Positions 7,381 through 62,964 of a stretch of DNA of 64,000 nt are shown piece after piece (position 1 is the stretch's first letter; every line of letters starts with the position of its first letter). The notes beneath the pieces were generated by a model that saw only the letters and a list, made by a program, of their open reading frames with translations, had not been told where the DNA came from and searched no databases. Position numbers and translations under genes: made by a program. Location of the stretch: NCBI GenBank assembly GCA_964016885.1, contig OZ024743.1:163494001-163558000 (forward strand). Reading direction: 5' to 3'. This stretch comes from Eledone cirrhosa (taxonomy: Eukaryota).

Positions 7381-8116
7381 GAGGTACATGGTGGGCATGG
7401 TTACTGCTCAAGAATTGAAGAAGGAGTGAGACTTCTTGAATTTTGTGATGCAAGACCAAGATACATATATAAATCAACAAAAAAATATATAGTTCATGGA
7501 ATGTGATTTATTGATCAGATTTGTTTGATAATAAAATATAGAATGTTTACAGTATAATGATAATCTTTATTGATAAAGCATTTGTTAAAAATTATATTGC
7601 AAATAATGTGAGATTGGAATCAAAGTGTATATAATAAATATTGGGACAAAATTCTTGATTTGTTGCAGAAGGGTAAGATCAATTTTTGTATATTTAGATT
7701 ATTACTGGTACTTATTAAGTTGTTGCCCTGCACCCAGGGATGAAAGACAGAGTTGACCTTTATGAGATTTGAAATGAAAAGAAAATTACAGCTCACACCT
7801 ATGCAGGATAAGTCGGTTTCCTGAGGTTTTGCCAAACAAAGGGTCAGGAGGACTCTTCAGCTGTATCAAAGACACAGCAAACTCCCTAATGTTGGTGCCA
7901 TGATAAAATACACTCAATAGAGTGCAGCAATGTATGTAAGTGTGATGTGGGCCTCCCCAACTCATCTCAGAGGTCTGTAGCTCTGCTGGAGTACTTGTCT
8001 GATAACCAAACATTTGCCAGCAGGGAAAATGGATGTTAAATGATGATATTCATGTATATGTATATTTATATACCTAAATATATATATCGAGTCGATGAAC
8101 TTTCGTCAAATCGGAT

Positions 8117-8302
8117 CTAGGAAACAATGTTTCTGTTGGTCTTTCCAGTTGCTAATACTCTCGATCGGTCGCAACTCCAGGTAGAATGAGCAACATGAAA
8201 TAAAGTGTCTTGCTCAAGAACATAACGCATCACCCAGTCCAGGAATCGAACTCGCGACCTCACGATTGCGAATGCAATTCTCTTATCACGCAGCCACATG
8301 CC
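8117..8302 (-). mobile_element. tRNA-head SINE
   Basis: Minus strand tggctgcgtgataag...gagttcgattcctggactggg...cttgagcaagacacttt. Confidence 0.7.
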
Positions 8303-8549
8303 TTCATTCCTATCCTACTTGTTTTTTTTTAACCTCTAAAACAAAATAGCACAAGGAATTCTTTTTTTTTTAGAATGTGTAATTAATAGTATTTATTTCA
8401 TCAACGTTGGAAATATGAAAGGTCTATTTTTCTTTCATCATCCATCAGATCAATGAAATAATTAATTACCAGTAATTACTGGCCATCAAGACCTCTGATG
8501 TCCTCAGTCCCTGGACTGCCATATTACCCTCACCAAATTGGGAGGAGGG

Positions 8550-8913
8550 TGTAGCGGTTGTCTCCCTTGTTTGGATCTAGACGGGAAGTGGAACCCTTTC
8601 TGCAACTTCCGGTCAGAACCCTGTAAAACTAACAACTTTAAGCTCCCTTTCTCTCATTGCCTTTTCGGCACCAGGTCAAGAGTCTCTCATTTGGCTCTGC
8701 CAAACATTTGGCCAACAGGCGCCTGGCCTTAGCCAGGCGGCCTCTGCCAGCCGCGTTTGCCTGGCAATCAAAACGGTAACTACTAACTTTGCTTCATTCT
8801 AACATCTATTCCTTTGACATGTCAAAAATACTATCTACCATTGTTAATTAAATATTATACACACAAACAATGTATTCCTTGTTACATTCATACAACCCAG
8901 TATTCTCGCTATA
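8550..8913 (+). repeat. 5' LTR
   Basis: TGTAGCG...CGCTATA; direct repeat of 10234-10597. Confidence 0.92.
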
Positions 8914-8914
8914 T

Positions 8915-8946
8915 TGGTAACCCTGATGTGATACGAACACGCAGCC
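8915..8946 (+). promoter_or_regulatory. tRNA-Trp primer-binding site, extended to 32 nt
   Basis: TGGTAACCCTGATGTGATACGAACACGCAGCC versus recalled metazoan tRNA-Trp complement TGGTGACCCCGACGTGATTCGAACACGCAGCC. Confidence 0.85.
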
Positions 8947-10233
8947 GTTCATCGCTATAAGTGGTCACCCCAAAAAAAGAAAAAGATAGCACATCTGGTT
9001 TCGTGTGAGTAACATTACGAATACACAGTAAATTTATCGACAAACTATGAAAATACTCAGTAAAAGAAACAAACGCACACACGCACATGTGGAATTCGCG
9101 TTCAGACAGACTTTTTTCTCTCACGCATCAACTAACTGTCGCATTTCACGATATATATATATACATGTTTCTCGTTTCTTACAACAAACTCTTTCAAAAC
9201 ACAAAAAAAAAAAAAAAAAAAAAATTTGATATTCTTTAAAAAAACATTTCAACAGGAACATTTATTTTCGATGAACCATTGACTTTTTGTTCATCGTTTT
9301 CTTCATCGTTCAAGTTTTTTTTCTTCCCAAAGTTCACACCAATAATTATGCTGAGTGAAGCCTTTCTTTTTCATCATTGTCACTTTCAAAATTGCACTAT
9401 CATTTTCTCGCGCGTTAGAAATATTATTTTTTTCAACTTTGTATTGGCACGTGTAGGCAGCACAAATTCTCGATTCACAGAGATGTCTCTACTCACAGAC
9501 ATAGCCGCACGCCAGAGATAACACTTCTCGCCAAGGATTCTTCAGCCTTAAGCTATATTCTTCTATTTGCCGGTTTATAAATTTACAATGTAAATTTACC
9601 GTTGATAACCGCGCATTTATTAAGAATGCTTATTTCTCTGGTCGCTGGCCTCTTGACCCTTCCAGGTCAACGCATTCTCAACATCGACCATCAACTTCGG
9701 CTGCTATTTCTAGCACTTTGCGCAACTCATTTTTTCTAAAAAAAAAATTTTTTTTTTACTGTGAATTTAAACACCGAATACGCTCACTCAGCGAGACAAC
9801 AGCAGCAGCAATACATCAACACAGCTTCACCAACAACCAAAGCCAGAGAATTTATTTTTGCAGCACTCTTCCTGTGAGAAAATCCATTCGGAGGTTGGAA
9901 ATTTCACGATATACCACAGAACAGAAACCACCTGCATTCATTCTCTGGAACACACTTTCTTTCCTGCTGTCATGTGATTGCACACCTGTGAACTTTATTT
10001 TGTACATTTGAACTTTGAGCTCTTCTCTTACTTTATTACATTGTATCTTTGGGTGATGGATAGATAGATGTCCAGTCGTTCTCTGGCCAAGAGCGGTTGG
10101 CTACCTTGATATCTATCATTGATTTTTGCAAACATTCTTTTGACGTAATTTTCATGCCTGTTACAACATTCTCGCCAACTTGCTACATATTTTCATTTCG
10201 ATTTTTATACACTAAAATTCTGGCGGGAGGTTA

Positions 10234-10597
10234 TGTAGCAGTTGTCTCCCTTGTTTGGATCTAGACGGGAAGTGGAACCCTTTCTGCAACTTCCGGTCAG
10301 AACCCTGTAAAACTAACAACTTTAAGCTCCCTTTCTCTCATTGCCTTTTCGGCACCAGGTCAAGAGCCTCACATTTGGCTCTGCCATTCATTTGGCCAAC
10401 AGGCGCCTGGCCTTAGCCAGGCGTCCTCTGCCAGTCGCGTTTGCCTGGCAATCAAAATGGTAACTACTAACTTTGCTTCATTCTAACATCTATTCCTTTG
10501 ACATGTCAAAAATACTATCTACCATTGTTAATTAAATATTATACACACAAACAATGTATTCCTTGTTACATTCATACAACCCAGTATTCACGCTATA
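10234..10597 (+). repeat. 3' LTR
   Basis: Direct repeat of 8550-8913. Confidence 0.92.
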
Positions 10598-12349
10598 AGG
10601 GTATCATGCCCAATGAAGGAGAATGACAGATGCAGCAGACATCACTGCCAGTTTTCTGTTGAACATACAAATTTCACTAAATGATGCTCTACCAATTCTT
10701 CCATTCCATTAACCTTGATTTCTAACATTATCACAAGGCCACACATTGATGGAAGGGCTGTACTGCATTTATTCGGATTCAGTATATTACTGACATATTG
10801 CCTATCCCCAAAAGGAGGACAGCCAGGATTTGAACTCAGAATGTAACAAAATATTGTAAGATATACTTTCTACCTTCTAGCATTTGTGCTTCTTTACATA
10901 TCTCGTTTAGAATAAATACACTGCAACTCCATGTGTTGTAAGAAGTAACGAAAAGGTTTGGCATCAGGATATCTGGCTGTAAAACACTGTCTCAAAAAAG
11001 CCCCCATGATCAATACTAAGTCTGTTAAGACTAAACTAAACCCTGCTTTAGCAAGAAAAAATGGACTTAAAACACTTGTTGGATAATGATATGTTGGTCT
11101 TGCTGGCAGGAAAAGTGGCCGTTACAATGATGATCCTTAGTATCTGTACCATCCAACCACTTAAAATCATAAATATTTCTCTCATTCAAATAACGTGTAA
11201 AGGTAACAAAAGTTATTTCCCTTAGTTCACAAATACTGTGAAGAGCAAGAAAGAGGGGCATTTTATTTCCATCCATTTTCCCAAGCTGGCAGCAGCATTG
11301 AGATAGATTCTGCATATTACTATTGTAGCAAGTGATTTTATGGCTGGATATCTGCTATTGAGAAACTAATACAGTTTTGAAATAAGAATGGTAGCTATTA
11401 CCAACTTAGCTGAACAGAGTAAGGCAAGCTGTCTCTAAGAATTATGTATTACAAACTAGATACATCCATCTAACAAAACACCATACCATACCATACATTT
11501 CTACCTTTTTTCTAGCAAGATATGAAGCAGTTATTATGCATAACTGGCCTTAGGAAGTGTCAGGCCCCTACTGAATATTGCATATATATTGCAATTTCAT
11601 GATTTATCAAGCTGGCCACTTTTTCCTGTCCCTAAAGATATTTAACTTGATTTTCTAAAGATATTATTATTTGTAGCAATTTCTGTATTTAGCTGGCCCC
11701 TTTTTCCTATCCTTAATAGTACCCTATTTTCTAAAGCTATTATTTATAGTGATTTCTGCTATGGTGTTGTGTGTGCTTGACTAGCTGAGGGTAAATTACT
11801 CAAGTGCGGGGGCCTAATTGTTTTAAGTTTGGCTCTGTTACTATGAATACAGTATATAATAAAAACCTATTCTAAAACCCAGGATACATACCTTCCATGA
11901 TAATTTTCTGTAAGAACCCTTGTTAAGTTATGTTCCAACAACTAGCTTAATAATGAGAACGTTATTTTACTAAATCCTTCCAAATTCTTGATTATTTTCA
12001 AAAAGATTTGAAAATCATAGGCAATGTCTTTCATTAGAAATATGGTAAATAAAGGGTTCAGGTGGCTATTAGCTTCAGAAGTAACTGGACCTCTCAGTGG
12101 ATTGAGATTTTTGAACCTAAAGGATCATATGTGAAAACAGCTATATGTGAAGACAACCTTAACATACAACAATGGAGATTACAACTCTAAGATTCATTTG
12201 CCATCGTTCTTGTCAATGCCCCGTTTAGTTGGTATTTGTTGGTCTACAGTTAGATGAATGGCGCACAAAGGGTTAATGTTTATTAGCAAGAAGTGCAACT
12301 AGGCTGCCTTGCCTCACTTATATTATATATTAAAATAACAGATTAAAGT

Positions 12350-16309: not shown

Positions 16310-16981
16310 CATTTCTTCACATCATCTGCATCAATCTCAGTAGTCTGAGAAGAGATGGCTCAAGGCCAGACAATTTGGTAGAAAAGTATAGGAAGACTTG
16401 GGATGAGGTAATAAAAGCTGATCTTGCACAATTACACCTCTCAAAGGCAATGACTCAGGACCCCGACCTTTGGCGCTATGCAATTTTATGGAAGACCCAC
16501 CCTCTATTGTTCTCGGGATGAGGCTTATACCTAGTAGGCAACACCTTTCTCAACCTGCTACTCCTCTCATCCACCTCCCTTAGCGGTAACCATACCTACT
16601 ACCCTAGTCCCCACTGTGTTGTGTCGGTGACACAACAAAGGTGCCCAGTCCACACTGTAAAGAACATCCAGCCCACACTGTAAAGTGATCATGTAGGTGT
16701 CACAACAAAAAGTACCCAGCACACACTGTAAATGTGGTTGGTGTTAGGAAGGGCATCCAGCCATAGAAAACAAGCCCACACTGTAAAGTGGACGTGTAAA
16801 AGACATGGCAAAAAACACCCAGCACACACTGTAAATATGATTGGTGCTAGGAAAGACATCCAGCCATAGAAAACCAGCCAGAAATTCTCCTATATGAGCA
16901 AGAAACAGTCACACGACCCAACTTGCCTCTAATAGGGACAAACCCGTCTAACTCGGAAGATAGGCTTTAATTGATGATGAT
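16310..16981 (+). mobile_element. RTE LINE 3' end
   Basis: RKTWDEVIKADL, repeated cacactgtaaa 3'UTR motifs, gatgatgat tail. Confidence 0.75.
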
Positions 16982-25808: not shown

Positions 25809-28616
25809 TCAGGGATCAATTTCCCCCTCATCCTTCTGCATATGAAAGTCTGCTGTCCAGGTTGGTGGTTTGCGACTTCTTTGTGATCTCCGCAGTGTTG
25901 GGGCGGCACTTTGGGTTTCCTCTTCCACGGAGTCCATTGACACAGTGATTCTATGGACATCCAGGACATGACGTGGTACTCCGTCCACGGACACATTGTT
26001 CTGGGAATTTACGGCCGTCACCGTTCCCCTTCCCCATTGAGATGTGCAACGTGCATCTGGGGGCTTAACCCAGACTTCTTCGCCCACCTGCACGAATGCA
26101 CTCTCTCCCCCCACTGGGCGTTGTGGTGGCGTGCACGGGTGCCGCCACTCGTGTCTGAATACTGCTCTGTGTGGCACCGATTCCTCGACCTGTCCCACCC
26201 GAAGCTCCATTGGTGAGATATGGCCCCGCTCCGCCATTGCCTTGATCGTCCGGTGGTGTTGCTCCACAATTACATTCCCGCTCGGCCTCTACGCTGCTCT
26301 GAAGAAACGGTCCACCTTCCATCCATCGAGCATCTCCCTCAGCGCCTCCAAGTGGAATGCTGTGCTGTTGTCCATCAGCAGTTCGACCACAGTGCCCCGC
26401 TCCAAGAACACCTCTCTCAACATCCGCATGATTTCCTCGGCCGTTCCAGTCTTCATCTCCCTCCATATCGCCATCCGTCCTGGTCCACAGTCGACCATCG
26501 AGAGGTACGTTCCCTGTCGGTAGTGCGTTACATCCACCGCCAATCGCTTCCAGTCGCGATCCACCGGGAGGCTTCCCGTTTCGTGCACACCCGGGCCGGG
26601 ATCAATGGACTGACATCGGACGCAGCCTCTAATCACCCTTTGAACACTGTGTCTGTTAACGTCCGAGTCGATTCTCCTGGCTAGGAACAGGCTCCTATCC
26701 ACTCCCATGTGGTGCATGTCATGCAACCCTTTCAGATCCGACTCGGTCAGCCGACACACGGCAGCTATCTCATCTTCTACCTCCTCCAGCGCTTCCATCC
26801 AGGTTTTCTTCACCCTAGTTAAGACGTCTGCCCTATTTTTCTCTGAGGGCACGAAAACTACGCTCAGCCTCAGGTCGAACTCGGTGGTCAGCTCTCCTAA
26901 AGTTCCCAGGCGGCGCTTTATTCGCACTCTCTTCTCACTGGTGAGCACTGATCTCACCCATCCGAGTACAGTAGCCGAGTCGGTGCGTATCTCAATGGTG
27001 CGCAGTCCCCACCTCAGGGCGAGGTTCACCGCTCTCAACACTGCGTCCAGTTCGGCCACATTGATGTGGTTCAAGTCGTCCTTCTTCCTAAGCCAGGCTG
27101 CATCCTCGACCTCAACACCTCCTATCTCCAACGTGACACCCAGCGCTATGCTGCTGGCATCGCACCATACGGTCCCGCTCTGCGATTTGGGAACATACCA
27201 GCGTCCCCGCACTGGGTCGTCGGCCTTCACCCACTCTACGATCTCCTGCATCATGGCCACCATCCTCTCTCCCACTCTGTCACTCCAAGTCACCCCTTCC
27301 GCTCGTCTCTTGACATAGCTGCATGCCGTCCGGAGCCACCCAGCAACCGAGTAGTGACCCACCAACTTCCCACACACCGAGAAAAGCTCCCGCCTACTCA
27401 TACTTGGGCCCAGTTCTGGAACTTCATTTCCCCTCTGGAATACCAAGACGCCTGTCCTGTCTCGCCGTAGCTTAAGTCCCAGTGCGGCTCCTCCTTCCAA
27501 CGCTTCTGATGGCTTCGCAGCCAGTCCATGCCACTGTAAATGGCTCATGACCTCCGCCGCCGACACCACAGACTCGTCCGATAGGATGTCGTCAATGTAG
27601 GAGTTAGTGGCCCTCTTCTTCTTGTCGGCCTTTCCCAGAATGGTCTTGAGGACCGCCGCCATGATCTTCGGTGCGGGGCTCAGCCCGAAACCGAGCCTGG
27701 TCAGGCAATATGTCCGACCCTTATACCTGACCAGCTGATACTGCCAGAGCTTCTCATCTATATGCAATTGCAAGTATGCCGACTTTAGATCTACGATTGC
27801 TGAACCCCCCGTCACGCGTCTCCACTCACGCAGGGTTTCCCCACAGACATCCGTGACCTCGCCACCCGTGTGACATGACACGTGCTCGTTCAGCTCCTGA
27901 AAGTCCAGCACCGGCCTCACCTTGTTCTTTGTGGGTTGCGCCACCGCCATTAACGGCAGCACCCCACACTTCACCTCCTTCCAGGGAACCAGTATGCCCT
28001 CCTTGATCCATCTCTCTACCTCTCGCTCAAACTCACTCCTAGTGTCTCCTTTCAATGTGTGCTGATAGCAGCACACTTTGTTTTTCAGTGTTGGTGGTTC
28101 TCCCTTCCAGTACCACTCAACAACCCATTGCTGCCCATCGAACACGGCCTTGAAGTCTTTGTCCTGCACAGTGTAAGTGGGGTATTTCTCCTCGTGGGCC
28201 TTCTGGTTCTCCTGTCGCGTACTCAGAGCGCACACCGATGCAGCGCTGCCAAACGACACACCGACGTTGTTCACTGTGACGGCTCCTAGACGGCCAATTG
28301 CGTCCATGCCCGTAACCACGCCGATCCCATCCACCACGTTGTCAACTACGATGGCAGAAAGCCTTATTTTCCTTCCCCGTACCGCTATTTCCATCTCGCT
28401 GCGACCTCGGCATTCAATTTTCCTGCTGTCGACTGCCCTTACGCTGCTCATCCCTCTCCACCTCTGCGCCACCCCCACGGTCACCAGTGTCATCGTACAG
28501 CCCGTGTCCACGAGGGCTCGCTATAGCTTTCCCCTCACGAAGACTTCCACCACGGGCAGCGCCTCTACTTGTAAGGGGCAATTACCGGCACAGTAGTTCC
28601 CCTTGGATCGTTTCCC
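25809..28616 (-). pseudogene. pol: pol (PR-RT-RNase H-IN) with in-frame stops at 28521-28523 and 26289-26291
   Basis: ALVDTGC; RPVLDFQELN, LGFGL, YIDD; WCDAS, HINVAELDA, RTDS, ADVLTR; HHCC motif, AVDVTHY, MDNSTAF, IVEQHHRTIK. Confidence 0.92.
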
Positions 28617-29326
28617 TGGTCGCAGTTAGTAGTGATGTGGCCTGGTCGCTTACACCGGTAGCATATTATTTCCAGCCTTGATTCTCTACAGTCTCTAGCC
28701 ATGTGCGGGCCCTGGCACCTAAAACAGCGACCTCGAAACGTTCGCGGGCTACAGCATGCCGTGGTTGCCTCCCTTTCACCATTTCGCTGCCAGCTGTCTT
28801 GAGCCTCTGTAGTTGCTATCGCCGCGACACTCTTCTTGGCATCTTCTGCTATGATCCGGGCTGGTTCCACCAGTGAACGCATTTCCATTTCTTTGTAATC
28901 CAGGACTTGCTGCAGTTTCACCGCTATGTCATTTGGAAATCCATTTATGAACGCCAACCTCACCATGCGTTCGCATTCCACCTGATATCCAGCCAGCATG
29001 GCCAATCGCCGTATTTCCGCTGCGAAAATGTCAACACGTTCACCGTTCCATCTAATTCTTGCCAGCTTAGCAAAAGCAGCTAACGGTCCCTCTGCGAACG
29101 CTTCCATCATGCGCCTCTCAATCTTTTGCGCATCTCTTTGGCTGTGTTCATCCAACTCAAGGAAGAGTACCAACGCGTCCCCCTCGAGGTGCAGTGCCAT
29201 GAGGCCAGCCACATCTTCTATCTTCTGTAAGCTTGCGACCAGCCGGACTTTTCGCAGCCAAGCGACAACATCACCTTCACCGGTAAATGCCCTAATCGCT
29301 TCGCTTGTTCGTAGTCTCGTCGCCAT
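28565..29326 (-). CDS. gag: Gag with two zinc knuckles
   Basis: Intact 253-aa ORF; CFRCQGPHMARDC and CYRCKRPGHITTNC. Confidence 0.9.
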   Translation of the reverse strand: MATRLRTSEAIRAFTGEGDVVAWLRKVRLVASLQKIEDVAGLMALHLEGDALVLFLELDEHSQRDAQKIERRMMEAFAEGPLAAFAKLARIRWNGERVDIFAAEIRRLAMLAGYQVECERMVRLAFINGFPNDIAVKLQQVLDYKEMEMRSLVEPARIIAEDAKKSVAAIATTEAQDSWQRNGEREATTACCSPRTFRGRCFRCQGPHMARDCRESRLEIICYRCKRPGHITTNCDQGNDPRGTTVPVIAPYK

Positions 29327-29435
29327 ATCCTAATTTGTCTTGTGGTACGTGATAGAAAAAAACAACAGACTCCTCGCTGTTTTTCCAGTAGCTTTTTTTT
29401 TTTTTTTTTTTTTCAATCAGATCTCAGTTTCCAGT

Positions 29436-29717: not shown

Positions 29718-31297
29718 CTCTAGATAGGGGAAACTATAGAGGCATTAAGTTAGTTGACCAGGTCATGAAGGTCACAGAAAGAGTTATTCCACAACTAATT
29801 AGAGACCGAATTGATCTAGATGAAATGCAGTTTGGGTTTGTGCCAGGTAACTACAGGAGAAGTACCAAGCTAAAAGTAAACCCCTATATTTAGTTTTTGT
29901 TGACTTGGAGAAAGCCTTTGACAGAGTCCCACGCACCTTAATCTGGTGGGCTCTTAGAAAACTAGGAGTAGATGAGTGGCTTGTGAGAGCTATACAAGCC
30001 ATGTATAGAGGAACAGTCAGCAAGGTTAGAATTAACAATGAATATAGTGAAAAGTTCAGCGTAATAGTAGGTATTCCTCAAGGCTCCGTCCTTAGCCTCC
30101 TCCTATTTATTATTGCCTTACAGGCTATAACAGAAGGGTTTAAGACCGGCTGCCCATGGGAACTTCTATATGCAGATGATCTAACTCTCCTAACTGAATC
30201 TATGGCTGAACTAGAGAAGAAATTACAAACATGGAAGCATGGCTTAGAATCAAAAAGGCCTTAAAGTTAATTTGTCTAAGACTAAAGTTCTAGTATGTAG
30301 AAAGGAGAATAGGTCACAGGTGCCCTCTGAGAAATGGCCATGCTCAGTGTGTAAGAAAGGGGTAGGTAGAAATTCCATTCTATGCCCCAAATGCAAACTA
30401 TGGGTACATAAAAGATGTAGTGGGATCAGAGGTAAGCTATCTAAGAATGTAGATTTTATATGTGGCCGATGCTCAGGTGCAGTAAGTAGCAAGGGCCCAT
30501 TGAATGCTATCTCCTTCAACTGCCCAGATGGTTCTATAGAAATAGTAGACACTTTTCGTTACCTGAGTGACAAAATCAGCAGTGGAGGAAGGTGCTCTGA
30601 AAGTACAGTAGCCAGAGTTAGAACGGGATGGAACAAGTTCAGAGAGCTAATACCGCTGTTGAGAGAGAGCCTAAACCTAAGAGGTATCAAATATTGTGTT
30701 CTGGAGAGGAGATGGCGTTGGTATGGGCATGTAATGCATATGAGGGTCAACAGCTGTATGAAAAAGTGCAGAGCAATCAAAATTGATGGAAGCAACGGAG
30801 TGAGTAGACCAAAAAAAACCTGGGCCGAGGTGATAAAAACTGACCTCTCTAAGACAATGTTACTGGATTGAGAACTTTGGCACTATGCAGTTGCACAGAA
30901 GACTCGCCTTCCCTTGCATACAAACTTAAACCTACAGTCAGCAGGCACCTCTTAACCCAATATACACCCCACCCCACTGTAGAGTGGTCATGTAGGTGAC
31001 ACGACAAAAAGCACCCAGTCCACACTGTAAAGTGGTAGTGTAGGAGACACAGTAAAAAGGCTCCCAGTCTAAACTGTAAATGTGGTTGGTGTTAGGAAGG
31101 ACATCCAACCGCAGAAAACCTGCCAGGGACAGTTCTGTATGAGCGAGATATGGTCTCCCGACCAATCCCGCCTCAAGTGGAATAAAACCGTCTAACCCAT
31201 GCTAGCGTGGAAGATGGACGTTAAACGATGATGATGATATATATATTCTCATTAATATTCTACTGAATTAAATTAAGACATATAACGGCGATACTTG

Positions 31298-45883: not shown

Positions 45884-47487
45884 CATCATCATCATCATCA
45901 TCATCATCATCACCGTTTTACGTCCGTTCTTCCACGCTAGCATGGGTTAGACGGGTTGTCCTGTTGTGTGCAGTGTCTGGTCGGCTGACCATGCCTTGCT
46001 CATACAGGAACTGATCTGGCTTGATTTCTACAGCTGGATGCCCTTCCTAACACCAACCTCATTTACAGTGAGTGCTGGGTGCTTTTTCGTGGCGCCTACA
46101 CGTCCACTTTACAGTGTGGTGCTTTTTTGTGGTGCTTTACAGTGGGTGCTTTTTTGCCGTGGCACCTCCACGACCACCTTGCGGTGGGGTGTGTGGGGGC
46201 ATATTGTTTATATGCTTCAGCATGTACCCATGGGAGGTTGGGTACTCTGTATTACTGCGTGACGCCAGAAGTCACGGTCGTGTGTCATTGTCTTTGAGAG
46301 GTGTAATTGGGTAAGGTCGGCTTATATCACCTCATCCCAGGTCATCTTGGGTCTCTCCACTCCGCGGTTTCCATCAACTTCTAGTGCTCTGCACCTTTTT
46401 ATGCAGCTGTCATCCTTCATACGCATCACATGTCCATACCAGCGCAACCGCCTCTCCTGCACACAGCATTTGATTCCTCTTATGCTCAGTCTCTCTCTCA
46501 ATTCATTTATGCTTTGTCGTTCACGTATATTACTGTTACACATCCATCGGAGCATGCAGGCTTCGTTTCTCTCTAATCTACGTAAGTCTTCCACCTTCAG
46601 CGCCCAGGTCTCACTACCATGCAACATCGCTGTTCGGATACACGCATCATACAGTCTGCCTTTCATTCTGAGGGAGAAGCCTTTTGCAGCTAGCAGTGGT
46701 AGTAGTTCCCTAAACTTCTTCCATCCTGTTCTTACCCTAGTTATTGTACTTTCTGAACACCCACCTCCGTTGCTAATTCGGTCACCTAGGTAGCAGAAGC
46801 TGTCTACTGTTTCTACAGGGCCCTCCCAGAGATTGGTGGTACTTGTTTCCTGTGGCTGTTTGCTGCTTGCTGTTTCAGCACAGCTGCTGCATGTGAATCC
46901 TACATTCTTAATTAAGCTTCCTGAGATCCCGCTACATCTCTTGTGTACCCATTGTTTGCATTTGGGGCAGAGAATGGAGTTCCTACCTACACCTTTCCTA
47001 CATACTGAGCAAGGCCGTTTCCCTGAGGGGATCTGGGTTCTGTTTTCTCGTCTACTTACAAGGACCTTAGTCTTTGTCATGTTGACTTTGAGACCCTTTC
47101 TCTCTAGTCCCTGCTTCCAGGTTTGGAATTTATTCTCTAGTTCTACCATAGATTCAGCTATGAGTGCGAGGTCATCAGCATACAGGAGTTCCCATGGGCA
47201 TCCGGTCTTAAACTCTTCCGTTATTGCCTGCAGGACTATGATGAACAGGAGAGGGCTAAGAACAGAGCCCTGGTGGACCCCAACCTGTACGCTAAATTCC
47301 TCGCTATACTCATTGCTAATCCTAACTTTGCTGACTGCTCCCCTATACATGGCTTGTACCGCTTTCACAAGCCATTCATCTACTCCTCGTTTTCTAAGAG
47401 CCCACCAGATTACAGCACGTGGAACTCTGTCAAAGGCTTTCTCAAGGTCGACAAATGCCAAGTAGAGTGGCTTACTTTTAGCTAGGT
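45884..47487 (-). mobile_element. 5'-truncated RTE LINE with an open RT C-terminal ORF (46322-47461)
   Basis: FVDLEKAFD, GVHQGSVLSPLLF, LYADD, PHD finger, RLRWYGHV; (gat)n tail. Confidence 0.93.
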
Positions 47488-47824
47488 AAATGTGTGTGTA
47501 TGTTTATGTCCTATGATAGAATAAATACCAAACTTGAAAAATTCTATATTGGGGTTATGATCAACTGAACCCCACCTGACCCCCACCCCTTTAAGGCAGT
47601 GCCTGAGCATGACCACAGTCTAATGACTAAAACAAGTAAAAGAATACAAGTGTGACATGAAGTTCACAAGCTGCACCCAGACTACTGGACTAGGAGGGAA
47701 CCAAATATGAATACAGATTGATACAGGGTTGAAGGGATTAATACTTGACTTGCTTTCCAGGGACTTCATAATTCTGTGTTTTTCTCTTCTAGTGAAATAT
47801 TATTTCTTCTCTTTTGATTTTCAG

Positions 47825-52719: not shown

Positions 52720-54259
52720 CACGATAAAATGCACCCGGTCAACTTCATAAAGTGGTAGTACAGGTGATATGATAAATTACACCGACTCTACCCTGTAAAT
52801 ACACCCACCCCACTCTGTACAGTGATAGTACTGGTGCTATGATAAAATACACCCACCCCACTCTGTAGAGTGGTAGTACTGGTGCTACGATAAAATACAC
52901 CCACCCCACTGTAGAGAGGTAGTACTGGTGCTATGATAAAATACACCCACCCCACTCTGTAGAGTAGTAGTACTGGTGCTATGATAAAATACACCCACCC
53001 CACTCTGTAGAGTAGTAGTACTGGTGCTATGATAAAATACACCCACCCCACTCTGTACAGTGATAGTACTGGTGCTATGATAAAATACACCCACCCCACT
53101 CTGTAGAGTAGTAGTACTGGTGCTACGATAAAATACACCCACCCCACTCTGTACAGTGATAGTACTGGTGCTATGATAAAATACACCCACCCCACTCTGT
53201 AGAGTGGTAGTACTGGTGCTATGATAAAATACACCCACCCCACTGTAGAGTGGTAGTACTGGTGCTATGATAAAATACACCCACCCCACTCTGTAGAGTG
53301 ATAGTACTGGTGCTATGATAAAATACACCCACCCCACTGTAGAGTGGTAGTACTGGTGCTATGATAAAATACACCCACCCCACCCTGTACAGTGGTAGTA
53401 CTGGTGCTACGATAAAATACACCCACCCCACCCTGTACAGTAGTAGTACTGGTGCTACGATAAAATACACCCACCCCACTCTGTAGAGTAGTAGTACTGG
53501 TGCTATGATAAAATACACCCACCCCACCCTGTACAGTAGTAGTACTGGTGCTACGATAAAATACACCCACCCCACTCTGTAGAGTAGTAGTACTGGTGCT
53601 ATGATAAAATACACCCACCCCACCCTGTACAGTAGTAGTACTGGTGCTACGATAAAATACACCCACCCCACTCTGTAGAGTAGTAGTACTGGTGCTATGA
53701 TAAAATACACCCACCCCACTCTGTACAGTGATAGTACTGGTGCTATGATAAAATACACCCACCCCACTCTGTACAGTGGTAGTACTGGTGCTATGATAAA
53801 ATACACCCACCCCACTCTGTAGAGTGGTAGTACTGGTGCTACGATAAAATACACCCACCCCACTCTGTACAGTAGTAGTACTGGTGCTATGATAAAATAC
53901 ACCCACCCCACTCTGTAGAGTAGTAGTACTGGTGCTATGATAAAATACACCTCCCCTTGTAGAGTGGTAGTACTGGTGCTATGATAAAATACACCCACCC
54001 CACCCTGTACAGTAGTAGTACTGGTGCTACGATAAAATACACCCACCCCACTCTGTACAGTAGTAGTACTGGTGCTATGATAAAATACACCCACCCCACG
54101 CTGTAGAGTAGTAGTACTGGTGCTATGATAAAATACACCCACCCCACTCTGTAGAGTAGTAGTACTGGTGCTATGATAAAATACACCCACCCCACTCTGT
54201 AGAGTAGTAGTACTGGTGCTACGATAAAATACACCCACCCCACCCTGTACAGTGGTAGT
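52720..54259. repeat. 48-bp minisatellite, about 31 copies
   Basis: Unit ctggtgctatgataaaatacacccaccccactctgtagagtagtagta, with 46-bp variants. Confidence 0.97.
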
Positions 54260-54432
54260 TTGGACCAGGCAACACATTGTTTTTAAGCATGGCTCTTATT
54301 AAACTAACTGAAAATCATCCTATGAAATACAACCTCATAGAGGCCAGCTAAACTTGCATAGATATGAGCTGTTAATTAGAATTTTTTTTTTTCAATTCTG
54401 GAGCAAGTGACAAATGTTTTGTTTTATTTCAG

Positions 54433-59486: not shown

Positions 59487-62454
59487 TCATCATCATCACC
59501 ATCGTTTAACGTCCATACTCCATGCCTGCATGGGTTTGGACGGGGGTTTTCCCACTTGAGGCAAGAGTGGTTGTCTTGCTCGCATAGGACTGTCTGGCGG
59601 GTTTTCTACGGCTGGATGCCCTTCCTAACACCAACCACATTTACAGTGTGGAACTGGGAGGTTTTTACCGTGTTACCTACACGGCCACATTACAGCGTGG
59701 ACTGTGTTTTTTTGTCGTGACACCTACACGACCTCATTTGTTTCGGCCTGGATGTTGTGGTACCAACATAACTTTACATTGAAAGGGGTGGTGTGGATGG
59801 GGTGGAGGTAGTGGGACAGGGTGTATTTTGTTAGTGTTGCCTACTGACTGTAGTAGGTTTTACTTTGTATTTAGGTAAGGCGGGTCTTCTCTATTACTGT
59901 GTAACGCCAAAGATCTCGGTCCAGTGACATTGTCTTGGAGAGGTGTAAGTGTGTGAGGTCGGAATTTATCAAGTCATTCCAGGTTTTTCTGGGTCTGCCT
60001 ACTCTGTGGCTACCGTCTATCTTTATTGCCCTGCTCTTTTTTATACAGCTGTCGTCTTTCATGCGCATCACTTGACCATACCAACGTAGCCTTCTCGCGA
60101 GTAAACAACATCTGATCCCTCTTATTTCTAATTTTTCCCTTAGTTCGTTTATGCTTTGCCGTTCACGTATATTACTATTACACATCCAGCGGAGCATGCA
60201 AGCTTCGTTCCTCTCTAGTCTGTGTATATCCTCTGCACACAATGCCCAGGTCTCACTGCCATGCAACATTGCTGTTCGTATGCAGGCATCATACACCCTG
60301 CCTTTCATTTTTAGGGAGAACCCTTTAGCGGCTAATAGTGGTATAAGCTCTCTGAACTTTTTCCAACCAGTTCTGACTCTAGCTATCGTACTTTCAGAGC
60401 ACCCTCCCCCACTGCTGATTTTGTCACCCAGGTAACGGAAGCTGTCCACTATTTCTATAGAACCATCTGTGCAATTGAAAGAGCTAGTATTTTGTGGGCA
60501 CTTGCTGCTACTTATTGCACCAGAGCACCGGTCACATATAAAATCTATGTTCTTAGTTAGCTTACCTGTGATCCCACTACATCTTTTATGCACCCATACT
60601 TTGCATTTGGGACATAAAATGGAGTTTCTACCTACTCCTTTCCTACACACTGAGCATGGCCATTTCCCGGATGGGACCGGCGCCCTATTTTCCTTCCTAC
60701 AAACTAGAACTTTAGTCTTAGACAGGTTAATTTTAAGGCCTTTTTGATTCTAGGCCATGCTTCCATGTTTGGAATTTCTTCTCTAGTTCGGCCATTGATT
60801 CAGCTACGCGCGTTAGATCATCTGCGTATAGGAGTTCCCATGGGCAGCCGGTCTTGAACGCCATTGTTATAGCCTGAAGGGCAATAATAAATAGTAGGGG
60901 GCTAAGAACGGAGCCCTGATGAACACCAACTTTTACGCTAAACTCTTCACTATATTCGTTGTTAATTCTAACCTTGCTGACTGTTTCTTTATACATGGCT
61001 TGTATAGCTCTCACAAGCCATTCATCAACACCTAGTTTTCTAAGAGCCCACCAGATAATGGAATGGGGGGGACTCTGTCGAAGGCTTTCTCCAAGTCGAC
61101 AAAAGCTAAGTATAGGGGTTTACTTTTAGCTAGGTACTTCTCCTGTAGTTGTCGTACAATGAAAAGAGCGTCTGTGGTACTTTTGCCTGACACAAACCCG
61201 AACTGCATTTCATCTAGATCAATTCTCTCTCTGATTAGTTGCGCTATTACTTTTTCCGTGACCTTCATGACCTGGTCGATTAATTTAATGCCTCTATAGT
61301 TACTCCTATCTAGGGCATCTCCTTTACCCTTGTAGCAGTTAATGATGATGATGCTACGCCAGTCCTTCGGAACAACCCCATTCTGTACGACTTGGTTTAC
61401 TATCCGGGTGACCATGGTGTGTCCCACCGTTCCAGAGGCTTTCAGCATTTCAGCAACTATTTCCAAAGGCCCAGCCGCCTTACCCATCTTCATATCTTTG
61501 ATTGCCTTACTTATTATACTACCTTCGACTAACACTGCTGGTCCCTCTATTGGATCGATGTGGGGGAGACTGTCTTTCTCCCATTTATTCTCCTCATTTA
61601 GTAGCCTTTCGTAGTGACACTTCCAAGCTACCTTCTTATCAGCGTCAGTGATGGCAAGTACACCATCGTCATTAAGTACACACTTCTCCCCGACAATATC
61701 ACGGTTTTCCTTGACACATTGCCTAGCAATCCTGAACACCTCACGTTTTTGGTCCTCGCGTTGTAGAACATGCTTGAACTTTCTTTCCTCTGCTTCTCTT
61801 CTTGCGAAGTACACTTGTCTCCTAGCTTCCCTCCTGGCCACTTGATAGTCTTCTCTACTTCCCCCATCCTGCCATACATTCCAAGCCTGCTTTTTGGCCT
61901 TAATTGACTCCTCCACCTTACTGTTCCACCACCATGTTACTCTCCTCCTGCCTATAGGCCTGCTCCAGCCACAGACTTCGTCTGCCGCCATCAGCAGGTT
62001 TGCTTTCAGGAATTCCCACTGTTCCTCTATATTGTACGACTCTAAGTGCTCTTCCTTACTGTCGAAAGCATCAAGTAATATGCTTTTAAATTTATTTCTG
62101 GCTGTGGGGTCCTTTAGCTTCCATATTTTTCTCCTGAGGATAGTCCTCTTCTGTTGTCGAATAATTCTCGTCCTGACTATGAGGTCGCTAATTATGAGTC
62201 TATGTTGGGAGGTGCATTCTTCATGGGGGAGGGATTTAGTGTTTACAACAGACACTCTGTCACGTCTTCTGGTAAGGATATAATCTACCTGGCTGGTATG
62301 TTCACCTGATCTGTAGGTGATCAAGTGATTGTCTCGTTTTTTGAAGTTAGTGTTACAGATAGTTAGGTTATTTGCGTCACAGAATTCCAGGATTCTGGAG
62401 CCTTCCTCATTTCTAGTACCAAACCCATAGCCTCCGTGGATTCCACCATGGTTA
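59487..62454 (-). mobile_element. RTE LINE (partial endonuclease + RT + PHD), two frameshifts
   Basis: ORFs 61032-62510, 60733-61014 and 59871-60650; (gat)n tail near 59490. Confidence 0.95.
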
Positions 62455-62964
62455 CTTGGTGAGGAGGGTGACTTTGGACATCCTGCAGGACTAAAAACAA
62501 AACCTGTCAAAGGGCAAAGCAGCTCTTAAGAGTCAATGGCCATCCAACATCACCGGGAGAGATAACCCCTTAGCCTTTGTCAAGGCAGAATTCTAGGAGA
62601 AGGAAAACTCTGATATAACACCTGCAACCCTGATGGTATCCAATGATGTTGACTTGTTCTTCTTTTTGGTAAATATCATCTTGGTTAAGAGAGTGGGACT
62701 GGCTTTGTGCAGTGCCTTTGCTCACTATAAAAGCTTCACGGCACAGGCATTGCTTTATATCTGGAGATCTCTCTGCACTTGTCGTCACATGGTACCATGG
62801 GCCCAGCACTATGTGTCAATAATTGTCACAAGTGTAGTGTTTGTACCAGAGTTTTCAAGTCGCTGGCTGGACTAAAATGTCACACTTGTTCAGCGCATCG
62901 GTAGGGGTTCTCCTACATAGATATAAAGTAGTGGCCGTACTCGAAAACGAGTTGGCAGCCACCA
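62455..62964 (-). mobile_element. Second, 3'-truncated copy of the 573-bp element
   Basis: Reverse complement of 45241-45750. Confidence 0.85.

Follow-up and report, generated by a model that had tools for sequence, protein, structure and literature searches.

A 32-nt tRNA-Trp complement between two LTR ends in a non-autonomous retrotransposon of Eledone cirrhosa: a probable trace of read-through at tRNA position 58

A short non-coding LTR element of Eledone cirrhosa carries, between two copies of its LTR end, a 32-nt complement of tRNA-Trp. This arrangement probably arose when the reverse transcriptase (RT) read through a predicted m1A58 of the primer, likely put an A opposite to it, and the product realigned on U5. 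Over-extension followed by realignment is a highly probable part of this reading; that the A at position 19 of the complement stems from misincorporation during read-through is reasonably likely. A first-pass annotation of this DNA had proposed that read-through past m1A58 and an aberrant plus-strand transfer were fixed in the genome. This proposal was supported by the match to the host tRNA, a surviving insert-free sister group, independent tRNA-Trp over-copies with an excess of changes at position 19 and three further copies of the same layout, m1A58 itself being predicted.

The element and its match to the host tRNA

The window is the whole stretch of DNA analysed, i.e. 64,000 nt of assembly GCA_964016885.1 (OZ024743.1:163,494,001-163,558,000, forward strand), with positions counted from its first letter. 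Positions 8550-10597 form a 2,048-bp non-coding LTR element in which the tRNA-Trp complement lies directly 3' of the 5' LTR. Its parts are as follows.

8546-8549 (+): left target-site duplication AGGG, the same 4 letters standing at 10598-10601
8550-8913 (+): 5' LTR, 364 bp, differing from the 3' LTR at 9 of 364 positions
8914 (+): 1-nt spacer between LTR and primer-binding site (PBS); the older-looking subgroup and the sister group have 2 nt here
8915-8932 (+): PBS, complement of tRNA-Trp nt 76-59 including CCA, 15 of 18 positions matching
8933 (+): position 19, opposite tRNA A58; A, not T
8934-8946 (+): over-extension, complementary to nt 57-45 of tRNA-Trp (T loop, T stem and variable loop), 13 of 13 matching
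8947-8959 (+): repeat of the LTR's final 13 nt (U5 tip), its last 8 nt identical to this copy's own LTR end
8960-8971 (+): 2-nt spacer and relic short PBS, 9 of 10 matching here and 12 of 12 in the sister group
8972-10221 (+): non-coding internal region with a 168-aa open frame
10222-10233 (+): polypurine-tract-like run, recognized from its sequence, and 3-nt spacer preceding the 3' LTR
10234-10597 (+): 3' LTR, 364 bp, as compared with the 5' LTR
10598-10601 (+): right target-site duplication AGGG, equal to the left copy

The last 8 letters of segment 10222-10233 recurred 5' of the 3' LTR in nearly all copies having a 3' LTR in range, and a matching 4-bp target-site duplication was found in 7 of the 12 family copies with both LTRs in range. 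With paired LTRs, a target-site duplication, PBS and polypurine tract at the inner LTR edges and no coding capacity, the element is an LTR retrotransposon of the non-autonomous type. Its 168-aa open frame gave no Pfam match, and tblastn comparison with the coding regions of autonomous families matched only a nested copy of the focal family. No helper element was found by blastn and tblastn against 13 loci of other tRNA-Trp-primed families; this search gave PBS-sized matches, nested focal-family copies and one 76% LTR match (in L144).

Some minor features of the element and its surroundings were also recorded. The five to six letters just inside the LTR 3' tip (8900-8913 and 10584-10597 in the window, and likewise in family loci) differed markedly from copy to copy and, within one copy, from one LTR to the other. 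Four of 46 LTR-LTR substitutions in seven pairs sat 8-13 nt from the LTR end, where 0.76 were expected (p 0.007), and this variability could bias LTR-pair dating. Elsewhere, a 48-bp tandem array of about 30 units (52750-54300) was akin to dispersed repeats at 16653-16812 and 30952-31056, and stop-free frames of up to 743 aa in repeated regions (26289-29329, 46322-47503 and 59871-62525) probably belong to other retroelements.

The host reference was the tRNA-Trp(CCA) gene at locus L050, called by ARAGORN (as were such genes in 7 of 12 submitted loci), to which CCA was added before alignment. Segment 8915-8946 was complementary to nt 76-45 of this tRNA at 28 of 32 positions and the match stopped after nt 45. 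The coordinates, letters and 32-nt complementarity given at first pass were thus borne out on the host gene, as was the A at position 19 (8933) in place of T opposite nt 58, followed by 13 matching nucleotides. The remaining mismatches had been described as one G>A and two CpG transitions, and this description is correct (position 5, 8919, G>A; position 10, 8924, C>T in a CpG; position 13, 8927, C>T in a CpG). As decay of this particular copy, only position 13 stands, its change occurring among 91 tabulated copies in L001-L003 and L073 only. The change at position 5 was common to 409 counted copies and that at position 10 was present in nearly all listed copies. The 32-nt pattern had 609 matches in the genome and its reversed control had none, so the segment is neither a chance match nor an assembly slip. 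When four runs with other organism codes were compared to 8600-9130, one contig covered 8927-9059 and another 8780-8941, position 8933 lying within 10 letters of both ends at a depth below 5.

Two objections had been foreseen in the first-pass annotation. One was that host tRNA-Trp would fail to match beyond nt 18; the match extends to nt 32 of the complement. The other was that a genomic tRNA-Trp or SINE already bearing T58 could explain the sequence. More generally, the 32 nt could stem from an event at the DNA level or from a captured tRNA gene, pseudogene or SINE. A pattern search recovered 69 tRNA-Trp-like matches in the genome, 63 of them with A58. Five of the six others were 5'-truncated fragments ending in CCA; the sixth (L123), a gene copy of full length from within a tRNA cluster, provides one T58 source for such a capture, but it has A57 where the element has G57, and lacks CCA. 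The element's combination, G57-T58, occurred in none of the 69 matches. Neither was CCA encoded by any full-length tRNA-Trp gene inspected, and since the complement includes CCA, the template was most likely a mature tRNA. Furthermore, the tRNA part starts exactly at the PBS position and is antisense, ARAGORN called no tRNA gene in the window, and Rfam found no RNA family in 8000-11000. Capture at the DNA level is thereby largely refuted and very improbable. The tRNA complement is instead contiguous with the PBS beyond nt 18 and derived from a CCA-ended template, as is characteristic of an over-extended strong-stop product.

Large tandem tRNA-Trp gene clusters were seen at 353.39-353.49 Mb and 277.40-277.45 Mb of one contig (G000:C4), and locus L107 displayed a nearly full-length, diverged tRNA-Trp complement behind an LTR-like end.

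The insert-free sister group and the proposed mechanism

The first-pass annotation had reported a second LTR end (8952-8959) and a second PBS start (8962-8971). Both were found again, the latter with 9 of 10 letters matching, and comparison with other copies extended the LTR end to 13 nt (8947-8959). A search for an LTR end followed by a short PBS and an A-run returned 82 matches at 81 places. Of the 20 matches fetched, 19 had no insert, and displayed the LTR end, a 2-nt spacer, a 12-nt PBS and the A-run ahead of a homologous body (about 70-80% blast identity). By its sequence, this sister group would represent the state expected without the insert. The twentieth (L256) was considered as an insert-free copy with a relic-like LTR end and discarded, the insert being present.

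L256 belongs to an older-looking insert-bearing subgroup, together with L213, L222 and, with small changes, L203 and L205. In this subgroup, the same LTR end, spacer and perfect 12-mer flank the tRNA copy on both sides, which defines the insert as 47 nt long (tRNA copy, 13 nt of U5 tip and spacer). In L213, a 22-nt direct repeat composed of LTR end, spacer and 12 nt of PBS stands on both sides of the insert. Junction homology at the insert was only 1-2 nt. About 500 copies carry the 47-nt insert, and insert-bearing copies outnumber insert-free ones by about 6:1. In the main group, the relic downstream PBS displayed a change at its fifth letter and growth of its C-run.

A tree of 47 of the 83 insert rows and 19 of the 20 new rows, unrooted and without outgroup, did not reject the placement of insert-bearing rows on one side of a branch (p-AU 0.59). 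Insert-free rows were the more diverse, with a mean distance of 0.081 against 0.046 in the main insert group. On this unrooted tree, the data lean towards gain of the insert rather than loss; loss through the 22-nt repeat in the insert-free group is possible. The 46-47-nt unit was also found tandemly duplicated in L121 (608-700 and 1455-1500), L122 (585-680), L244 and L246. In L121, the 3' LTR itself ends in an extra 46-47-nt unit, i.e. the LTR boundary has moved.

The following course of events is proposed. On an element with a 12-nt PBS, RT would have made plus-strand strong-stop DNA and passed the predicted m1A58, likely placing an A opposite to it, before halting at nt 45, the foot of the anticodon stem. 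The over-long 3' end, presumably unable to pair with the 12-nt PBS, would have met 1-2 nt of homology about 13 nt inside U5 and annealed there. So realigned, it would have recopied the LTR end, the spacer and the short PBS and run on into the body. The upstream, longer site would now be the working PBS, leaving the downstream short one to decay. Plus-strand synthesis would usually stop at 18 nt again, so that position 19 would be inherited from the element RNA and not rewritten at each cycle.

Position 19 in the focal family, in one-off over-copies and in autonomous families

Tabulation of the position-19 base across family copies, a check already suggested at first pass, required the family's next three letters after the 32-nt pattern. 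It yielded A in at least 481 copies, of which 409 carry the family-type PBS and 72 a tRNA-perfect PBS, G in eight scattered copies, and T or C in none. Thirteen of the 72 form one tandem run, some other counted places are tandem duplicates, and no separate count was made for copies in which position 5 alone is restored. Such uniformity indicates that the A is one inherited state going back to one event; inherited once, it amounts to a single observation for the focal family alone.

In roughly one of every seven copies, the 18-mer PBS is tRNA-perfect. These copies were scattered on the internal-sequence tree (83 of 91 rows, eight being left out for short internal matches, and L016 having been missed by the tabulating pattern), with 12 changes for 26 rows, at least four of which were forced by starred branches. 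The scatter fits an occasional renewal of the first 18 nt from the tRNA that would leave position 19 untouched. In L110, L116 and L187-L190, the tRNA-perfect 18-mer is followed by a jump into other sequence of the element, with 3-5 nt of homology at the junction, which indicates that the usual stop before A58 still operates. G at position 19 was not significantly enriched in tRNA-perfect copies (2/74 versus 4/413, p 0.23). Fold-back copies were encountered in L116, L186, L187 and L189, where a tRNA-perfect 18-nt PBS is joined to the insert's reverse strand on 3-4 nt of homology, forming a palindromic LTR-PBS-LTR. L235 is a three-LTR chimera with one GTAG target-site duplication and G at position 19 in both PBS units.

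Independent events were sought as CCA-ended tRNA-Trp copies of at least 36 nt, one mismatch being allowed. The 41 matches, at 40 loci, comprised 31 unique junctions, seven copies of one family and two of another. Among the 31 one-off over-copies, position 19 was T in 24, A in three, G in three and C in one. At their other positions, 24 of 1085 letters differed, for a background of 2-4% per site; even at 4.2% per site, the value corrected for the mismatch limit of the search, the excess at position 19 was significant (p 2.5e-4). Two points weigh against the A as a product of misreading. T was the commonest letter and A a minority outcome, and the A57-T58 gene copy L123 could have supplied three of the seven non-T events; when the three A events are credited to it, 4 of 28 remain non-T (p 0.03).

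Twenty-two of the 31 over-copies lay behind an LTR-end-like motif, against a background of 1.4%. They ended at tRNA nt 35-41 (23 cases) or 25-29 (eight), with none at 30-34; the first cluster partly reflects the 36-nt search minimum, unlike the gap and the second cluster. These ends adjoin G37 and G26 of the host tRNA-Trp, both G being present in the gene, and m1G37 and m2,2G26 are described as RT stops (PMC5066629). Likewise, m1A is reported to cause both RT arrest and misincorporation (PMC5066629, PMC7144921). Taken together, the 18-nt stops and the position-19 excess suggest that the host primer carries m1A58. The earlier view of the A as a likely record of a tRNA modification is supported by the excess of non-T letters in one-off over-copies; the focal family's own A, a single inherited state, adds one observation.

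In three of the 31 (L149, L173 and L181), the element's own LTR end is repeated (12, 16 and 24 nt, respectively) right after the tRNA copy. They display the focal layout of tRNA copy followed by LTR end and arose separately. A target-site check of the three found one matching 4-bp flank pair, one case in a TA run and one without match. Regarding the length of the over-copies, vertebrate tRNA-Trp is reported to have pseudouridine, not T, at position 54 (PMC6380271), and a second RT stop has been described for tRNA-Lys3 (PMC8599865). By analogy, a second stop of this kind may be missing in tRNA-Trp, which would favour long over-copies. Within the one-off set (L146-L185), T at position 20 accompanied 6 of 7 non-T letters at position 19 but 7 of 24 T letters (p 0.012); this link may stem from a difference between isodecoders, from sequence context, from decay of CpG sites or from the gene copy with A57-T58. 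L158 (identical to L124) is an over-copy that reaches tRNA nt 27 and then, after a fold-back through the anticodon stem, continues as a copy of itself; both arms of the resulting palindrome have A at position 19.

Inherited extensions were also present in three coding families, B, D and E, which displayed a CX2HX9CX3C (CHCC) Gag motif, a protease and RT motifs, and whose tRNA-Trp complements measured 32, 40 and 33 nt, respectively. The focal LTR did not match theirs. In family B, position 19 was T in 28 of 29 copies, which demonstrates that a long extension needs no misread base. Three of its 18 inspected copies had an extra G exactly at the 18-nt stop site, so errors at the 18-nt end also become fixed. 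In family D, position 19 was T in three copies and A in four on a fixed 40-nt extension, and in family E it was C and A. Across these families, long extensions thus appear as a recurring, tolerated outcome with a labile position 19. From their sequences, this lability would support a link to A58, but it would also support an A that entered at the stop once the extension was fixed. Copies of the focal family were seen nested in two of the four family-D elements fetched, L238 (3828-5948) and L239.

This last possibility leads to the main alternative, in which over-extension and slip-back took place with the correct T and the A came later. It could be a wrong or additional base that was introduced at the 18-nt strong-stop end and became fixed at plus-strand transfer, or the result of an ordinary mutation at an early stage. 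In the former version, the A is still a scar linked to m1A58, though one not left by misincorporation during read-through. The stable T and stop-site insertions of family B, the T/A flips of family D and the eight scattered G copies of the focal family speak in favour of this alternative. However, no T was found at position 19 among about 500 focal copies, the older-looking subgroup included, and the one-off events, in which position 19 and extension come from one pass, already display the excess. A later origin of the A is accordingly unlikely, and misincorporation at read-through is the preferred reading.

Maintenance of the extension and comparison with known systems

Whether or not the A was misincorporated, the extension may have been kept by selection, either as a longer stretch for pairing with the primer or, in the manner of the lentiviral primer over-extension sequence, as a place where over-extended strong-stop DNA can land. 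Such selection bears on maintenance rather than origin and can be compatible with read-through. The predicted duplex with tRNA-Trp reached -54.3 kcal/mol for 32 nt, against -26.2 for 18 nt and -13.5 for the relic 10 nt, and the 6:1 predominance of insert-bearing copies and the three autonomous families with inherited extensions point in the same direction. Also, at position 30, 4 of 74 tRNA-perfect copies versus 0 of 413 family-PBS copies had the letter found in a second tRNA-Trp isodecoder (p 5e-4), although these four may share descent (two are in the older-looking subgroup, one is a tandem unit and one a three-LTR chimera). On the other side, the extension was no better conserved than the neighbouring relic LTR end (1 of 13 variable sites each; p 0.19 versus flanks), that of family B is in decay (a change at position 25 in 8 of 18 copies), and copy number may be owed to one fortunate master copy. 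Across the whole unit 8934-8971, 3 of 38 sites were variable versus 47 of 171 in the flanks (p 0.01), a hint only, the 29 copies having been chosen by similarity. Selection is considered with reserve, as a rather doubtful addition to the preferred reading.

The closest known counterpart is the delayed second-strand transfer of HIV-1. Hardy et al. (2025, PMC12657518) described 44 defective proviruses with 7-54 nt of tRNA-Lys3 past the PBS, 5 of which had A for T opposite position 58. The order of LTR end, 18-nt PBS, further primer-tRNA nucleotides and a jump is shared. Yet the HIV-1 jumps are directed downstream with deletion, in dead-end somatic proviruses, while in the focal element the jump went back into U5, duplicated the LTR end and was followed by about 500 germline copies. 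In that report, the change at 58 is treated as a sequence mutation, not as a record of modification. HTLV-1 priming is described as depending on m1A58 too (PMC11251516). Over-extension including a change at 58 is thus known from defective HIV-1 proviruses; its fixation in a replicating germline retrotransposon appears to be new, as the main texts of the mostly open-access literature searched gave no account of tRNA over-copies that became fixed in a family of LTR retrotransposons (long PBS matches in CsRn1 elements may be visible in the alignment that supplements PMC2582038).

The interest of the case lies in germline fixation, in the surviving insert-free sister group and in a genome-wide record of how RT deals with modified positions in tRNA, rather than in any new enzyme or pathway, none being revealed. 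If the preferred reading is right, a type of product deemed a dead end in HIV-1 is able to persist and to give rise to a large family, and it offers a possible route to primer over-extension sequences and longer PBSs. A broader and still speculative idea, which we hold as possible though not probable, is that the leaders of animal LTR retrotransposons act as fossil tRNA-seq, one-off over-copies recording how RT misread the germline primer at m1A58 and halted at its m1G37 and m2,2G26. In the focal element, the accident would have given a longer working PBS (12 to 32 nt); this PBS would lie at the origin of the element's largest lineage and would now also catch over-extended strong-stop DNA. If true, assembled genomes would hold a readable record of germline tRNA modifications where a species has no tRNA sequencing, and of the handling of m1A58 by retrotransposon RT in vivo.

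Lentiviruses and spumaviruses display a primer over-extension sequence just 3' of the PBS, which pairs past tRNA nt 59 (Muthuswami 2002, cited in PMC13191261; Fukuda 2021, PMC8599865). The focal extension resembles it in its complementarity past nt 59 and its putative ability to accept over-extended strong-stop DNA. The lentiviral sequence, as described in these sources, reaches only about nt 55, whereas the focal one runs for 14 nt to nt 45, with a mismatch at 58 and a relic LTR end next to it.

Helenus TRIMs (Kojima 2024, PMC10886601) are likewise non-autonomous LTR elements with tRNA-like sequence. However, theirs is described as a tRNA-derived promoter inside the LTR, unrelated to priming, unlike the antisense 3' tRNA piece with CCA at the focal PBS. 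Assignment to Helenus/TRIMp3 was rejected, the focal tRNA part lying outside the LTR, antisense and limited to the 3' half, with no tRNA-like gene recognized by ARAGORN or Rfam.

The CsRn1 clade of Ty3/Gypsy (PwRn1, AgCR) is characterized by a tRNA-Trp PBS, a 4-bp target-site duplication and a CHCC Gag motif (PMC2582038). The first two are shared by the focal element, which, unlike CsRn1, has no coding sequence; the CHCC motif was present in families B, D and E, whose LTRs do not match the focal one.

In Ty1 and Ty3, primer sequence is reported not to be inherited normally in plus-strand transfer (PMC5371799). The short 12-nt PBS of the sister group and the persisting PBS mismatches fit a similar transfer through U5 rather than a tRNA-copied PBS, and most copies would keep their mismatches for this reason. 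Unlike in Ty1/Ty3, tRNA-copied ends are sometimes kept, as seen from the tRNA-perfect 18-mer of about one focal copy in seven.
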